Shown here: positions 1,132 to 7,092 of the stretch, one piece after another
How positions within the stretch are numbered: position 1 is the first letter of the stretch
How the letters are laid out: every line of letters starts with the position of its first letter
Source: a virus
Lineage: Duplodnaviria; Heunggongvirae; Uroviricota; Caudoviricetes
Virus record (IMG/VR): IMGVR_UViG_2529292836_000020
Direction: 5' to 3' (one strand)
DNA length: 7,092 nucleotides
The notes under the pieces: model-generated
Databases searched by the model: none
What the model was told of the DNA's origin: nothing
What the model saw: only the letters and a program-made list of their open reading frames with translations
Program-made: the position numbers and the translations under genes

Positions 1132-1357
1132 CTTCCAGTATCCTCTTCAAAGCAGGGTGATCTGTGGCGATCACCTCCGGCTTGTTTACCATTCCGACAA
1201 AGCGAGCTTGCGGATCCACTCGCCAGCGTCTTCCAACTTTTTTGGGGAGAGGAAATATCATTCCGGCTTTAGCGTATTTACTTAACGTACTCGGAGTTGG
1301 GACCGGTTCACTGAATTCCTCTTTTGCCCACTCAGTGAGCAGAATAAGTCTTGCCAT
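1109..1357 (-). CDS. xis: Excisionase (lambda Xis-like), 82 aa
   Basis: Small ORF directly upstream of int whose 3' end overlaps the int start by 23 nt, as in lambda xis-int. Translation MARLILLTEWAKEEF...IFPLPKKVGRRWRV resembles the lambda Xis pattern (LTLQEWNARQ...IFPPPVKDGRE). No strong SD, so the exact start is uncertain. Confidence 0.75.
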   Translation of the reverse strand: MARLILLTEWAKEEFSEPVPTPSTLSKYAKAGMIFPLPKKVGRRWRVDPQARFVGMVNKPEVIATDHPALKRILEDGAPAKI

Positions 1358-1421
1358 GAGCGTCGTTCGCTAATCATGGTCGCCGCCACTATAGCTGGTG
1401 GGCAACGACCGGGGTTGAACA

Positions 1422-2738
1422 TTAAAAATCAGCCTGATTCGGGATCAGTTTTTGCCAGATAACTGAAACGTATTTTGCCTGGTAACGGGCGTCATCAAGT
1501 GCATTATGGCGCTCACCTTCGAATGGAATAGCCGTTCTGGCATCGAAGTCTATGGCTTTCCCCAGCTCAACGATTGTGCGTACATCGCGATCGTTGTAGT
1601 AACGCCACGGGCAGGGGATCCCCTGCCGTTCGTATGAACGGCGCAAAATCGTGTTGTCGAAGTTGGCTCCATTTCCCCAGACCTGAACAAAAAATTCACC
1701 GGAGTTTTCGTCGATAAATTCCCGCAATTGTAACAGTGCATCATCTAACGGGATTTCATCGGTCATAATGGCAGACTGCGCTTCACGTGATTGCTTCAGC
1801 CACCTTTTAATGACGTCACGATCAATGACTCCGCCAGCAGTTTCCAGATCGATAGTCTTACTAAATTCCGGTCCCATATCTCCGGTTTGCGGATCGAAAA
1901 ATATTGCACCTATTGAGATAATCGGAGCATCAGGATTTTTTCCCATGGTTTCAAGGTCGATCATTAGATGGTCACACGTCCTACTGGCGGATGTGATTTC
2001 GTGATGACTGTTCACCTTAATTGAGTGATCTGCCGTCTCGCCAGTTTCATTATCGCTATTGTGATGCTGATCGCTACCAGCATTCTCCTTGTGTGGATGT
2101 TCAGCGCCTTCCATTTCCTTCGGATCATTTTCCTGAACTTCAACCTGATACTCTTCATCGAATGTTTCCTGGTATGTTGCGTCGCCCATCACCGCGCCAC
2201 AATCAGGGCAGTTGCCGCCGCCGGTCTGACCGCAGGCGGTGCAGATCTTTTCCGGTTCCTGTTGCACTACTGGTTCAGGTTGTTTCGTTTCTGGCTCGTT
2301 TTGTAACGCATTTGGGCTGTTTTGTTCCGCTTTCTGGTCGTTCTGTTCCGATTCTTGCTGGTTCTGGTTCACAGAATCGCGGGTTTCAATCCCCTTCACC
2401 CATTTCGGATCATTCGGGTCGCTAATCCCTGCAACAAATTCTCCGCGAGAGGCAGCAAGCAACTTATCGGCGTCAGGCTGGCTGATATTGGCTGCCTGCA
2501 TAATTTTGTTTACTTCGTCAGCGGTAACTTTTACCGGCTCTGGTTGTGCGGTCGTGTCAGATGCACCAGTATTTTGTTGTGAACCTGAGTATGTACCGTT
2601 TTTGCGGGCGAAATATTCTTCTTTCGTGATTTCAGTAGCCCCGGCAGCCAGCGCCTTATTCCAGACCAGAAAGTTTGTTTGCGCGACCGTATTTTTCGCC
2701 ATCCTTGTCGGTGAAGAGGAAGTAGAACGGCCCTTCAC
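1422..2738 (-). CDS. Intact C-terminal ORF of the exonuclease VIII-like gene (438 aa from GTG at 2738; contains the DEDDh 3'-5' exonuclease domain)
   Basis: Longest uninterrupted ORF in the window. Listed separately because an annotation pipeline may call it as a stand-alone exonuclease. First in-frame ATG at 2702 has no spaced SD. Confidence 0.55.
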
Positions 2739-3389
2739 GCTCTACAGATGGTTCGACTTCCACTTTGCATTCGGTTTTTTCGTTGTCCGGAATTGCCGTT
2801 TCCACTGCATCAGTTTCTGGTACTGGCGACGAGAGAGTATCAGTTGCGCTCTGATTTCTTCCTTCATCTTCAAACACGCCCTTTGTAGTCAGGTATTCAG
2901 TAATGTATTTGTTCAGTGCCACAGGGTCTTTGTGAATGTCGATCGGACGTTCACGGACAAGGCCAAAAATAGTCTGGCGGTCGTAGCGAAGGGCATCAGG
3001 CTGTTTGCGCATTGATGCCGAGATACGCTTCCAGTCTTCGCGTCGTTGTCGATAACTTCATTTTTTGCCCAGCGATGGATGCTGCCGTCAATGTTTCCGG
3101 CATCCACATCACCAGGCCAGAGAGCGTAGGCCAGTTCGTCATCCAGTGTTTTCCATGTCTGCTTGTATTCGCGATGAGTGGCAGCAATGACCGGGCTGAT
3201 TTTTCCTGTTGAATTTCAGTGTTCTGTTGATTGGCTCTGGCGCGGGCGAGATCAACAACAGACGTGTATTTTCCGGTTTCCTTGCGTTCACCTTCGCGAC
3301 GTTTTTTCCAGATGCGCATCTCTGCCTGAATTTCGGGCCATTTGGCACCAGGCTTACATTTATGCTTAACCCACCCGATGGCATGCAGC

Positions 3390-3887
3390 TTAAGTCCGGA
3401 TACATGGCGTTAACTTCTGCATTTTCATCAACGCTTCAACGATATGTCCGTCGAATGTTGCCATGTCTTCCTGCAACATTCCTGGCCTAATCACCATATC
3501 AACGGTGATGTTTTCACATGTGTCGAACTTAACCATGACAGCGTTCTGTACTTCAGGGGCCAGCTTGTCAAAAGTGACGTTCATCGGATCTGATTCAGTC
3601 TCAACCGGGACAAAGGAAGCTGACTCCTCATCCCAGCGGTTTTCCTGCATATATTCAGCATCCCAGGAATCGAGGGCAGGGCGGGGTATACCGGGTTTAT
3701 CCTCGCAAACAAGAAATTTATAAGCGCAGTCCTGAGCAGCCGGATAATGTTCCAGGAATTGCCAGTGAAATTTTGCGCGGGCGCGACGTTCATCACCGGC
3801 TTCAATGGCAGTGGCTACAGCGACTGCACCTTCTTCCTTTATTGCCTGTTCGTCCGGAATAGCGGCGCAAATAAAGACTTTACTCAT
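3390..3887 (-). CDS. N-terminal fragment ORF of the exonuclease VIII-like gene (165 aa)
   Basis: ATG at 3887 with GAGGT 9 nt upstream; ends at an in-frame TAA at 3392..3390 created by the first frameshift. Translation matches my recollection of the N-terminus of K-12 YdfE (unverified). Confidence 0.55.
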   Translation of the reverse strand: MSKVFICAAIPDEQAIKEEGAVAVATAIEAGDERRARAKFHWQFLEHYPAAQDCAYKFLVCEDKPGIPRPALDSWDAEYMQENRWDEESASFVPVETESDPMNVTFDKLAPEVQNAVMVKFDTCENITVDMVIRPGMLQEDMATFDGHIVEALMKMQKLTPCIRT

Positions 3888-3967
3888 GTTGTTTTAACCT
3901 CATTACAGATTTAAGGGTGAACAAATCCCTGCCATTGCTGGCATATAAAAATGAAACCGGATATTAA

Positions 3968-4171
3968 TTACGGTGCTGTTTTAAGTCCTGCCGGGATTTC
4001 GTTATTATCCATGTGAATAACTTTATCGACCGGATAACAGTTACCGGGAATTTTCTGTTCTGCTGCGGCAGCCATGCATTCTTTCATTGAACCGTAAATG
4101 TCAATAACCATGTCAACAGGCTCGCCAGTATTAAGAAAAACAGTCAGAGTGAGGGCAATAGCAGTATTCAT
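3968..4171 (-). CDS. ydfD: YdfD-like small protein (67 aa; Qin prophage lysis protein family)
   Basis: ATG at 4171..4169 overlaps the dicB stop as ATGA, with AAGGA 8 nt upstream. Hydrophobic N-terminus MNTAIALTLTVFLNTG. Position immediately downstream of dicB matches the Qin operon order. The ORF track's longer start at 4225 would overlap dicB by 58 nt and is rejected. Confidence 0.8.
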   Translation of the reverse strand: MNTAIALTLTVFLNTGEPVDMVIDIYGSMKECMAAAAEQKIPGNCYPVDKVIHMDNNEIPAGLKTAP

Positions 4172-4356
4172 TGCCAGTATCCTTTTTGCATCGGGCGTAA
4201 ACGGGCCAGCATTGAAAGAATGCATATTTTATTTAATAGCTCCCGTTCGTATTTTCTCTTATTAATGGCATCTTCAGTAAATACAGGGTTACTGATTCTG
4301 ACACCAATTTCAAAACAACCTTCAGACGTATTGACGTTTGGTAATAACGTTTCCAT
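4168..4356 (-). CDS. dicB: Cell division inhibitor DicB (62 aa)
   Basis: ATG at 4356 with GAGGA 7 nt upstream. Translation METLLPNVNTSEGCFEIGVRISNPVFTEDAINKRKYERELLNKICILSMLARLRPMQKGYWQ is near-identical in length and sequence to E. coli K-12 DicB as I recall it. The GTG start at 4452 in the ORF track lies inside the processing stem and is rejected. Confidence 0.88.
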   Translation of the reverse strand: METLLPNVNTSEGCFEIGVRISNPVFTEDAINKRKYERELLNKICILSMLARLRPMQKGYWQ

Positions 4357-4373
4357 TATCGCGTCCTCAACAA

Positions 4374-4530
4374 TGAATTTTGTGATGCGGTGCCTGGTGC
4401 CTCCAGGTGACGTTAACCAGTTAACAATTAACGCCGGATACAGAGAACCCACCCATAAGCCAATACGGAAGTCAACTGGTTTTAACTGTTCCGCGTGCGC
4501 TCAGCCGCATTCACCGCATCACAAAATTCA
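4374..4530 (-). promoter_or_regulatory. Perfect 19-bp long-range inverted repeat (4374-4392 and 4512-4530) forming a predicted RNA stem that encloses a 119-nt loop; candidate RNase III processing site
   Basis: Plus 4374-4392 tgaattttgtgatgcggtg is the exact reverse complement of plus 4512-4530 caccgcatcacaaaattca. On the minus-strand transcript the 5' arm begins 4 nt after the DicF U-tract and the 3' arm ends 17 nt before the dicB start codon. Confidence 0.5.
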
Positions 4531-4534
4531 CTTT

Positions 4535-4577
4535 AAAAAGGGCGGCAGAGCAGTCACGGAGTAAAACTGATACCGCC
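4535..4577 (-). terminator. Intrinsic terminator-like hairpin plus U-tract at the DicF 3' end
   Basis: Stem GGCGGUA ... UGCCGCC followed by C and UUUUU (plus 4535-4539 is aaaaa). Confidence 0.55.
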
Positions 4578-4592
4578 AAACGTCACCAGAAA
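4540..4592 (-). ncRNA. dicF: DicF small RNA (53 nt; ftsZ-targeting antisense sRNA of the dicB operon)
   Basis: Minus-strand sequence UUUCUGGUGACGUUUGGCGGUAUCAGUUUUACUCCGUGACUGCUCUGCCGCCC followed by UUUUU matches the DicF sequence as I recall it, in the expected position between ydfC and dicB. Confidence 0.88.
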
Positions 4593-4904
4593 ATTGATAA
4601 CAGAGGGCGTTGCAGCGGGGTTGTCACTTAAGCGTATGGTCAACCTGACAACCCGGTGTCCTCAACGGGGGAAGGAATAACCCCGCCATACTTACCGCCG
4701 CACCATTTCGCGGATTGCCACAACCGGAAGCGCACGGTCGACGAAAATTTAACGACAGGCTATCTATGAACCAGCTACCTCGCCGTGCGCTTTCGCGTTA
4801 TGGTCTGACTTTGCAGGGAAATATCCTTTCAGTAAACTGTCTGTGCCGGATGCTCACCCGTGGAGAACTCCTTACTTACCAACCTTAGCTTCGTTGGTTA
4901 GCTA

Positions 4905-5123
4905 TTAACGCGGGTATGTAATCATTCTGGCAATGCTTAATGCCGCTGCTTTTTCCAGATTAGTGATATCCTGCTCCAGAGCGGACAGATTTTCAGCCTG
5001 CTTAGCCCTGGCTTCATTGGCCCATTTCAGATCCTGCGCTGCATTAATTTTCTGGTACGTCCACTCATAAAGTTCATCATCGGTATAGTCTGGCGCGATG
5101 ATGACGGGTTCTCGTTTCTGCAT
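4905..5123 (-). CDS. ydfC: YdfC-like small protein (72 aa)
   Basis: ATG at 5123 with GAGGA 7 nt upstream; stop TAA at 4907..4905. Length and position (third gene of the operon, upstream of DicF) match Qin ydfC. Confidence 0.82.
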   Translation of the reverse strand: MQKREPVIIAPDYTDDELYEWTYQKINAAQDLKWANEARAKQAENLSALEQDITNLEKAAALSIARMITYPR

Positions 5124-5152
5124 ACTGATTCCTCGCGGTGCTGTTTCGCTTA

Positions 5153-5281
5153 TCAGCCGTTAGATTTTGCCGAACTGGAAAGCGCCTGTTTAAATTCGTT
5201 GAAGCTGAGAGCTTCTTCGCCTTCGGCAAGACCTTCGAAGTATTCTTCGTAAGCCTTTTCCATGATTGTGTCGAAATCCAT
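5153..5281 (-). CDS. ydfB: YdfB-like small acidic protein (42 aa)
   Basis: Not in the supplied ORF track (below its size cut-off). ATG at 5281..5279 with AGGTGA 5 nt upstream, one nucleotide after the ydfA stop; translation MDFDTIMEKAYEEYFEGLAEGEEALSFNEFKQALSSSAKSNG; stop TGA at 5155..5153. Fills the gap between ydfA and ydfC; length matches Qin YdfB. Confidence 0.72.
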   Translation of the reverse strand: MDFDTIMEKAYEEYFEGLAEGEEALSFNEFKQALSSSAKSNG

Positions 5282-5282
5282 A

Positions 5283-5438
5283 TCACTCACCTGAGTTTCT
5301 TTCCAGCCAGCGACGGGCACCATTTTCGGTTTTAAACGTTTTGCTTTTGGTATACGTCATCGCGGTGAACGTACCGTCCTGGTTGGGGAACACGCCACAT
5401 ACCAGAGATTCGCTGTTGCCAAGATCGATAGTATCCAT
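5283..5438 (-). CDS. ydfA: YdfA-like small protein (51 aa)
   Basis: ATG at 5438 preceded by GAGG 5 nt upstream; translation MDTIDLGNSESLVCGVFPNQDGTFTAMTYTKSKTFKTENGARRWLERNSGE. The upstream in-frame ATG at 5519 (78 aa) has a weak SD; the true start could be either. Confidence 0.75.
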   Translation of the reverse strand: MDTIDLGNSESLVCGVFPNQDGTFTAMTYTKSKTFKTENGARRWLERNSGE

Positions 5439-5616
5439 GCTGACCTCATTTCCCCTTAACGCCGGGGTAGCGGAACAAAAACCTGCTGCATAGTTATTAA
5501 AGTTGAACCCTGCCGTCATGTTCTTACGCCTCGGGCTGGCTACTTAACCCCTGACCACTGTCTGGTAACTCGAAGTATTGCCCTGCATTCTGTGGGGCGG
5601 GGTGGGTGGCAGGTAT

Positions 5617-5660
5617 ATAATGTACTTTGTGTTCATTGTTGTAAAGTACATTTAGTACAT
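5617..5660 (-). promoter_or_regulatory. Predicted leftward promoter of the dicB operon (-35 TTTACA at 5645..5640, 17-nt spacer, -10 CATTAT at 5622..5617) overlapped by operator-like hexamers
   Basis: Sigma70-like hexamers on the minus strand. Plus-strand TGTACT at 5621-5626 and AGTACA at 5645-5650 and 5654-5659 overlap the -10 and -35; AGTACATTT is a tandem direct repeat. Confidence 0.5.
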
Positions 5661-5735
5661 TTTGTGTGTAAAAAAATGAGATGGGATAAAGTGAAGCACA
5701 AACCCGGAGGAAGGCGCTACCGGATTTATGCTGGT

Positions 5736-6155
5736 TTAAGAGGCTTTTTGTTTTTTCTTTCGTGCTAACTCTTCGTAAATTGCATTGTACTTCTGTTTTT
5801 TCTCTTCAAGAGTTTTTAAAAGTTCATCTGTCTCACTGTCAGGGAGCTCGTCCAGAAGGTCAATGATGATTTTTTGTCTTGGATTTAACTCCTGATAGAA
5901 ACGTACCTGTCCACTTTCTTCTGTGTCCTCTCCCAAAAGATAGGTTGGTGTTGTTCCTATTAGTGTTGCTAATTCCCTTAATTTCTCCCGGCGAGGAATT
6001 GTTTCGCCATTAAACCATTTGCTAACCGCTTTTGGTGTTAATTTCATTCGACGGGCAATTTCTGCCTGCCTTCCATGTTGTTCATAACCAGCGTTTTCAC
6101 AGGCTAGCGCAAGCCTACTGGCGAACTCTTTACGCGCTTTATCTTCATGAACCAT
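5736..6155 (-). CDS. Prophage repressor, XRE-family HTH (DicA/CI-like), 139 aa
   Basis: ATG at 6155, stop TAA at 5738..5736. N-terminal HTH region (GRQAEIARRMKLTPKAVSKWFNGETIP) and C-terminal segment IIDLLDELPDSETDELL resembling the DicA C-terminus as I recall it; divergent from a cro-like gene. Confidence 0.9.
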   Translation of the reverse strand: MVHEDKARKEFASRLALACENAGYEQHGRQAEIARRMKLTPKAVSKWFNGETIPRREKLRELATLIGTTPTYLLGEDTEESGQVRFYQELNPRQKIIIDLLDELPDSETDELLKTLEEKKQKYNAIYEELARKKKQKAS

Positions 6156-6234
6156 AAGTTCAATGATATTCGCTCTTGAATGTACTGTCAGTTCTGTTAT
6201 AGCATGTACTCAAAGTTCACATTGTGAGGGTGAT
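6156..6234. promoter_or_regulatory. Divergent promoter/operator region between the repressor and cro-like genes
   Basis: Minus strand: -35 CTGACA (plus 6186-6191), 17-nt spacer, -10 TATCAT (plus 6163-6168), then 7 nt to the repressor ATG, implying a leaderless or near-leaderless transcript. Plus strand: -35 TTGAAT (6176-6181) and extended -10 TGtTATAGC (6195-6203); SD GAGGG before the cro-like ATG. TGTACT at 6181-6186 and 6205-6210, 24 bp apart. Confidence 0.5.
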
Positions 6235-6489
6235 ATGAACCAGAAAACACTTGAAGATGTAATCAAAACTGTTCGCGTTGCTGTTGTGGCCGACGTTTGT
6301 GGTGTCAGCCAAAGAGCAATCTATAAATGGATGGATAACGGAAAATTGCCTCGCACAGAATATACCGGCGAAACAAATTACGCTGAAAAAATCGCTCTTG
6401 CATCAAACGGATTATTTTCTGCCGATGCAATTTTAACTATTGGCAGGAATAAAACTACTACGAAAAAGCTGATGGGAGTTGATTCATGA
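6235..6489 (+). CDS. Cro-like HTH DNA-binding protein (84 aa)
   Basis: ATG at 6235 preceded by GAGGG; HTH segment DVCGVSQRAIYKWMDNGKLP. The ORF-track start at 6163 lies 7 nt from the divergent repressor start, inside its -10, and is rejected. Confidence 0.8.
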   Translation: MNQKTLEDVIKTVRVAVVADVCGVSQRAIYKWMDNGKLPRTEYTGETNYAEKIALASNGLFSADAILTIGRNKTTTKKLMGVDS

Positions 6490-6911
6490 AAATCAAGCAT
6501 GAACACATCCGCATGGCGATGAATGCCTGGGCGCATCCGGACGGCGAAAAAGTACCGGCTGCGAAAATTACCAAAGCGTATTTCGAGCTGGGAATGACGT
6601 TCCCGGAACTGTATGACGACAGCCATCCGGAAGCCCTGGCTCGCAATACTCAGAAAATTTTCCGCTGGGTGGAGAAAGACACCCCTGATGCGGTTAAAAA
6701 AATTCAGGCGTTGTTACCAGCTATCGAAAAAGCAATGCCACCTCTGCTGGTGGCCCGAATGCGCAGTCATAGCTCAGCCTATTTTCGGGAACTAGTGGAG
6801 ACGCGGGAACGACTGGTGAGAGACGCTGATGATTTTGTCGCAGTGGCGATCGCTGGTTTCAACCAGATGAATCGTGGTGGCCCTGCAGGAAATATTGTGG
6901 CTGTGCATTGA
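6486..6911 (+). CDS. YdaT-like (CII-like) regulatory protein, 141 aa
   Basis: ATG overlaps the cro-like stop as ATGA (6486-6489). N-terminus MKIKHEHI and position right after the cro-like gene fit the YdaS/YdaT-type module; family assignment is from memory. Confidence 0.75.
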   Translation: MKIKHEHIRMAMNAWAHPDGEKVPAAKITKAYFELGMTFPELYDDSHPEALARNTQKIFRWVEKDTPDAVKKIQALLPAIEKAMPPLLVARMRSHSSAYFRELVETRERLVRDADDFVAVAIAGFNQMNRGGPAGNIVAVH

Positions 6912-6982
6912 CTCGCAATATTCATACCGGATCGCTTCCGGCAATTTGTGAGTAAAAAGATTCGGTATCAAAAGAGGTGAGT

Positions 6983-7092
6983 ATGGCTAACGCCTGGCTC
7001 AGATTATGGCATGACATGCCAAATGACCCTAAGTGGCGAACAATTGCCAGGGTGTCAGGGCAGCCAATTGCAACAGTGATGGCAGTGTATAT
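6983..7092 (+). CDS. 5' end of a replication-region gene (possibly YdaU/DUF1376-like), truncated by the window edge
   Basis: ATG at 6983 with AAGAGGTGA SD at 6972-6980; open to the window end, translation MANAWLRLWHDMPNDPKWRTIARVSGQPIATVMAVY. Family assignment is tentative. Confidence 0.5.
   Translation, partial: MANAWLRLWHDMPNDPKWRTIARVSGQPIATVMAVY

Follow-up and report, generated by a model that had tools for sequence, protein, structure and literature searches.

The DNA analysed here (the window) is a stretch of 7,092 nt that forms the left arm of a lambdoid prophage inserted beside ompW. Its genes are arranged in the order int (1-1131), xis (1109-1357), an exonuclease gene (1422-3887), ydfD, dicB, DicF, ydfC/B/A, a repressor gene, a cro-like gene and ydaT, and the intact orthologue of the exonuclease gene that served as our reference lies in an identical context (ompW-int-xis-exo-ydfD-dicB-DicF). 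The DicF sRNA gene, between dicB and ydfC at 4540-4591 on the minus strand, is matched over its full length by Rfam RF00039 (76.7 bits), a placement that is as expected for a Qin/DicB-type immunity-left region. It is the sole Rfam match in the window, and the scan returned no RNA element inside the ORF described below. The exonuclease gene fills the slot adjacent to xis-int that is taken by exo-bet-gam in lambda and by recET in Rac, here without an annealase; recT is absent next to the gene both in the window and in annotated relatives (int-xis-exo-ydfD-dicB), compared with the recE-recT arrangement of Rac-SA53. The end of the window at position 7092 is also the end of the 89.6-kb contig AQEB01000098.1. 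This break lies about 180 nt past ydaT, inside the prophage, and is consistent with a repeat-induced assembly break.

The exonuclease gene occupies 1422-3887 on the minus strand and is the orthologue of WP_074504043.1, an 823-aa prophage exonuclease that is matched end to end by phrog_2082. In the closest complete genomes it is an uninterrupted CDS of 2472 bp encoding 823 aa, which PGAP labels 'exonuclease' or '3'-5' exonuclease' (WP_074504043.1). Other orthologues include WP_001507240.1, older labels are 'exodeoxyribonuclease VIII' and 'exonuclease encoded by CP-933P', and the intact gene is present in viable phages such as mEp460. The C-terminal part is matched in 4,728 of 5,426 complete E. 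coli genomes (∼87%), with a median of two and a maximum of nine copies per genome. The family is thus already annotated in thousands of genomes and is not a new discovery.

In the window the reading frame of this gene is broken up. The native start, ATG 3887, is preceded by the SD-like sequence TGAGGT at a spacing of 9 nt and opens an N-terminal fragment of 165 aa (3390-3887, minus strand) to which precomputed Pfam hits assign YdfE_N and YdfE_C. A model of this YdfE-like module (133 aa, from an alignment of 19 sequences) has a pLDDT of 45.4, too low for a usable fold. The C-terminal part is an ORF of 438 aa at 1422-2738 on the minus strand, which has a GTG start and whose coordinates include the stop codon, as given in the ORF list; the draft's own annotation has a 426-aa product from ATG 2702. 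Its first 27 codons (2658-2738, minus strand) are out of frame with the ancestral protein and form a leader that contains both candidate starts, GTG 2738 and ATG 2702. The remaining 411 codons (residues 28-438) correspond to ancestral residues 413-823 and are 95.6% identical to the intact orthologue.

The original prediction was that this ORF carries a complete and uninterrupted DEDDh 3'-5' exonuclease domain with the motifs DLET, NGANFD and HNALDDA. The ORF and all three motifs are present, and the domain is identical to that of the intact orthologue at 182 of 182 positions. A Pfam profile search, the check that had been suggested for the assignment, matched residues 257-428 (1455-1970, minus strand) to PF16473, the Rv2179c-like 3'-5' exoribonuclease domain, here of a DexA-like kind, with 214.7 bits (E = 9.7e-64) against a cut-off of 27 bits, the match covering positions 2-177 of the 177 in the profile. 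Exo I (DLET, residues 261-264; 1947-1958, minus strand) contributes the catalytic residues D261 and E263, Exo II (NGANFD, residues 356-361; 1656-1673, minus strand) contributes D361 and Exo III (HNALDDA, residues 411-417; 1488-1508, minus strand) contributes H411 and D416, all three being assigned by motif and alignment. A second DLET at residues 297-300 is non-catalytic. The five catalytic residues are invariant in the 31 homologues that were aligned, and D7, E9, D119, H186 and D191 of DexA align with D261, E263, D361, H411 and D416 of the ORF, respectively.

The fold agrees with this assignment. The AlphaFold model of the domain (pLDDT 83.9) has a DnaQ/RNase H-like fold, and its best Foldseek match is T4 DexA (PDB entry 8KEL; E = 7e-11, TM score 0.72-0.74); RNase T, a Cas-associated DnaQ domain and the Orn/REXO2 oligoribonucleases come next, and the top PDB matches all have a probability of 1.00. 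DexA was also the only match in a sequence search for solved structures. Sequence and model together predict a complete DEDDh 3'-5' exonuclease at the C-terminus.

Among solved structures, T4 DexA (exonuclease A; PDB entries 8KEL and 8KEN) is therefore the nearest in sequence as well as in fold, with aligned catalytic residues, and differs in being a stand-alone protein of 227 aa with extra loops and only ∼25% identity. Closer in sequence are stand-alone PF16473 genes of 183-190 aa, for example the 189-aa Salmonella protein P0137, which share 58-76% identity and the same invariant catalytic residues. These prophage genes occupy the same slot just upstream of xis-int and have their own starts, and they are without the YdfE and RecE-like modules. 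In Salmonella prophages (L009-L011: 3743-5570) the 189-aa homologue lies between a DndB-family gene (PF14072), which directly precedes it, and xis-int; this pairing with a DNA-modification-related protein might be a hint at function. The founder of PF16473, Rv2179c of M. tuberculosis, is a 3' exoribonuclease of roughly 170 aa. It belongs to the same Pfam family, whose profile is matched end to end, and is not among the top 50 Foldseek matches of the domain model, where DexA, RNase T and Orn lead. According to its cloning primer, the E. coli protein EcD (HAK9828821.1) begins with MIDTET and is thus another member of the family (Kang et al., 2025; PMC12153337).

Upstream of the DEDDh domain, residues 59-240 of the ORF (2019-2564, minus strand) form a non-catalytic segment that is homologous to the middle region of RecE. 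The RecE equivalog model NF007259 scores 245.4 bits with the ORF and 283.8 bits with the intact orthologue, far from its cut-off of 1269, and residues 237-626 of the intact protein align only to residues 260-603 of the 877 in the model, i.e. to the non-catalytic part. In a BLASTP comparison with RecE of Rac-SA53 the identity is 74% over 153 aa (residues 474-626), and the match stops immediately ahead of the DEDDh domain. Within the region common to both proteins is a CxxC-x9-CxxC motif (2196-2243, minus strand), which is conserved across both protein families and, to judge from its sequence, may be a zinc ribbon.

In RecE itself, residues 564-866 at the C-terminus form the nuclease, a PD-(D/E)XK domain of 5'-3' polarity, and no function is known for the N-terminal part (PMC11611040). 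No such PD-(D/E)XK domain is found in the 823-aa protein, as its match to the RecE model extends no further than residue 603 of 877. RecE of Rac and the present protein take the same slot in a lambdoid prophage, have a common middle region and both carry the nuclease at the C-terminus of a large protein; RecE is paired with RecT and has a 5'-3' PD-(D/E)XK nuclease, whereas the 823-aa protein has a DEDDh nuclease of opposite polarity and no annealase. Since the similarity to RecE ends at the nuclease domain, the protein is best described as a scaffold of the RecE type that carries a DEDDh 3'-5' cassette where RecE has its 5'-3' nuclease. The view that the protein differs from canonical RecE, as had been proposed, is thus correct on three counts (a score below the cut-off, an alignment restricted to the non-catalytic part and the lack of an adjacent recT), and its non-RecE status is already reflected in the current annotation. 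As a whole the 823-aa protein is modular: a YdfE-like module at the N-terminus is followed by a non-catalytic middle, which RecE also has, and the DexA-like DEDDh domain forms the C-terminus.

If the domain behaves like other members of its superfamily, it would hydrolyse nucleotides off free 3'-OH ends through a two-metal-ion mechanism, with D261, E263, D361 and D416 as Mg2+ ligands and H411 as the general base. By analogy, DNA is a more likely substrate than RNA because DexA is the closest solved relative; RNA is possible, as the name of the Pfam family refers to an exoribonuclease. The position of the gene in the early-left operon suggests that its most likely role would be the processing or degradation of DNA 3' ends during lytic growth, which could comprise end processing, support of recombination or replication, or DNA scavenging as for DexA. 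We found no experimental characterization of the full-length protein in the literature searched. The protein occurs in ∼87% of complete E. coli genomes and joins a RecE-like scaffold to a nuclease that would work in the opposite direction, with no annealase; its function is a legitimate question, albeit not a new one.

The original prediction also held that the gene is interrupted upstream of the ORF, and in the sequence as presented it is. Relative to the uninterrupted orthologue of 823 aa, positions 2658-3487 contain eight 1-bp indels, of which seven are deletions and one is an insertion. The insertion, a private additional T at 2658..2659 (minus strand), creates the TAA that ends a fragment of 118 aa. 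The seven deletions, likewise private, lie within 3042-3487 on the minus strand: three at about 3478-3487 and one each at 3419/3420, 3394/3395, 3213-3217 and 3042/3043, corresponding to nucleotides 402, 405, 412, 472, 498, 677 and 852 of the reference. The 836 nt that hold the indels contain no substitution relative to the intact orthologue. No specific error mechanism was identified, because only two of the eight indels fall in same-base runs (the TT pair at 3478/3479 and the A run at 3213-3217); for the same reason homopolymer errors of the 454/Ion type are not favoured as their cause. At 3478-3487 (minus strand) the three 1-bp deletions within 11 nt restore the frame, changing VISAQELLQ to VIRPGMLQ, and this triple deletion looks like a local consensus misalignment and not like three independent mutations.

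These lesions are confined to a single record. Proteins corresponding to the frameshift fragments occur in public data on one contig only, AQEB01000098.1, which belongs to the draft assembly of E. coli 2731150 (GCA_000354895). The lesions recur in none of the 5,426 complete genomes, of which the best matches at 98.9%. The window copy is the same gene in the same position as the 823-aa lambdoid-prophage exonuclease and differs from it by the eight private 1-bp indels and by a patchwork of alleles from two paralogues. Relative to ETEC O25:H16 strain F5505-C1 there are no substitutions and no indels in 1-1750 and 4501-7092, and all differences lie within 1751-4500. A contig of generally poor quality is rejected as an explanation because these two flanking regions are identical to a complete genome.

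The nature of the divergent stretch is revealed by a three-way alignment of the window with the ompW-side copy of F5505-C1 (copy 1; L003) and the potC-side copy of NCCP 13717 (copy 2; L007), a strain that also holds an ompW-side prophage. At the variable sites the window agrees with copy 1 at 128, with copy 2 at 136 and with neither at 18, and it changes from one to the other 23 times. Nearly all of the columns that agree with neither copy are the indel lesions, four of them arising from the alignment of the deletion cluster at 3479-3487; the others include three isolated substitutions (2397, 4061 and 4124). Two lesion clusters fall on allele-switch points, and the T insertion at 2658..2659 sits where the sequence switches between copy-2-like and copy-1-like. 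The indels make up eight of ∼11 private differences, which has a probability of about 1e-6 if indels are assumed to be 10% of mutations, the share taken from mutation-accumulation studies. The mosaic of paralogues reaches past the exonuclease gene into 3800-4500, where ydfD and dicB carry almost only copy-2 alleles of the potC-side prophage, and the sequence returns to 100% identity with copy 1 at about 4500, just before DicF.

In other drafts there are thousands of 'partial' fragments of exactly this 823-aa gene on contigs of 0.5-1.2 kb or at contig ends, and the gene is thus a repeat that is not resolved by short-read assemblers. On these sequence comparisons the broken gene is probably an artefact of a consensus that collapsed two paralogues and not biology, so that the earlier description of a formally broken gene is not supported: the lesions are private to one draft contig and lie in a stretch in which paralogue alleles alternate. 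In such a scenario the draft assembler would have merged reads from two paralogous prophage copies, which would produce the consensus errors. The ORF is the C-terminal half of a common prophage exonuclease gene, whose upstream frameshifts are probably errors of the draft consensus. In the real strain the gene would then probably be intact and translated from ATG 3887, and an internal start is not needed.

Besides the small share of indels in same-base runs, three points count against an artefact. The contig AQEB01000098.1 is listed under three samples, which weakens this explanation if they are independent assemblies. Recombination between prophages is a second consideration, as real mosaicism is common and could give rise to the allele switching. 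Finally, true frameshifted alleles exist: in finished genomes of PPompW/Stx2a phages at ompW, from EHEC, the gene is annotated as a frameshifted pseudogene (L001: 1676-4143), and natural inactivation of the exonuclease gene therefore does occur.

Among the alternatives to a consensus artefact, the one that survives best is that the frameshifts are real, making the gene a strain-private pseudogene and the C-terminal ORF a silent remnant that is still free of further lesions and is not meaningfully translated. We consider this unlikely. The gene is evidently dispensable in prophages, the annotated frameshifted alleles of the PPompW phages provide a precedent, and start signals for the ORF are absent (see below). 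Another E. coli has a broken copy in which only a C-terminal ORF of 180 aa (P0070) was called; with 2 kb of uncalled DNA upstream, P0070 is the remainder of a second broken long gene, and we rejected it as a bona fide stand-alone gene. Against a pseudogene, eight 1-bp indels with almost no private substitutions are unlike pseudogene decay, the lesions are confined to one draft, and the stretch that holds them switches between paralogue alleles ∼23 times. A biological pseudogene would show its lesions again in independent assemblies or relatives and would contain more substitutions than indels. Here the lesions do not recur, and the eight 1-bp indels compare with about three private substitutions. 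Clusters of 1-bp indels without substitutions in multi-copy prophage genes of draft assemblies should not be taken as pseudogenization.

A second alternative accepts the gene as intact and differs on its function: the full-length protein would be a prophage defence nuclease (long-form HREX) that acts against phages with modified DNA and protects the lysogen. DexA homologues are widespread in E. coli, and defence by one of them has been published, EcD protecting against T4 (Kang et al., 2025; PMC12153337). That most E. coli genomes retain the gene, and often more than one copy of it, would fit such a role, but the high copy number merely follows the number of lambdoid prophages. The early-left operon of lambdoid phages is repressed in the lysogen, and the gene lies at the distal end of this operon, beside xis-int. 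Furthermore, the residues that characterize EcD-type proteins are not carried over. Of the residues reported for 5hmC recognition, DexA W152 is replaced by Tyr and D169 by Ala, the latter in a loop where the alignment is uncertain. The tetramer-contact Asp (DexA D90), which is Ala in EcD, is retained here as an Asp within PLDDALL. A PADLOC search for membership of a known defence system gave only a weak generic DEDDh match (E = 5e-6). We consider a defence function improbable.

The original prediction went further and suggested that, in a formally broken gene, an internal start near 2702-2738 could still yield a stand-alone 3'-5' exonuclease. Candidate starts for such a DEDDh protein are GTG 2738, ATG 2702 and ATG 1964, and the product would be of the same kind as EcD or the proteins of the 183-190-aa prophage genes. 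Biochemically this is reasonable. The domain is undamaged and does not differ at any residue from that of an orthologue that looks functional, stand-alone homologues begin at the methionine of MIDLET or four residues before it and are bona fide genes in Salmonella prophages, and the draft annotators called a 426-aa product from ATG 2702. DexA and EcD are active as small proteins (PMC12153337), and in genetic tests full-length RecE can be replaced by its nuclease domain alone (PMC11611040).

The sequence around the candidate starts does not provide the necessary signals. Within the 20 nt upstream, the duplex with the anti-SD sequence is worth -2.1 kcal/mol for GTG 2738 and -2.6 kcal/mol for ATG 2702, compared with -5.8 to -7.8 kcal/mol for the genuine starts in the window (int, the native start at 3887 and ydaT), and the SD-like bases near both codons are only 0-2 nt from the start codon. 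The best-scoring in-frame ATG is that at 1964, the methionine of MIDLET, where an AGGA 14 nt upstream is too far away. No in-frame start before the domain has an SD at a workable spacing, and a scan of 1300-4700 on the minus strand found no σ70-like promoter site. GTG 2738 is in addition sequestered in a hairpin with an 8-bp, GC-containing stem at 2745-2722 (minus strand), GTAGAGCG...CGTTCTAC. A terminator scan flagged this hairpin; in the intact gene it falls within coding sequence and is therefore probably not a terminator. The stop codon of the 118-aa fragment is 44-80 nt past the candidate starts, and translation of the upstream fragments, this one included, would depend on serial reinitiation.

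An internal start near 2702-2738 thus lacks the expected signals, and of the proposed stand-alone exonuclease the biochemical part stands, as small relatives work alone, while its expression is without sequence support and its premise is probably false. With a truly broken gene being an unlikely starting point and the reported 5hmC-recognition residues not being carried over (W152 to Tyr, D169 to Ala and an Asp at the D90 position), we regard the proposal as very improbable, and the specific combination of real frameshifts with a DEDDh domain made from ATG 2702 or 1964 as slightly more so. Were it true, a decaying gene of the recombination slot would be turning into a stand-alone DexA/EcD-like exonuclease of use to the host, for example against phages with modified DNA.

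Shortened versions of the 823-aa gene are found elsewhere. Proteins of ∼210 aa (P0105, P0108 and P0078), present on 10-19 contigs, combine YdfE_N (PF27430) with part of PF16473 and seem to derive from the 823-aa gene by internal deletions and to recur in several assemblies.
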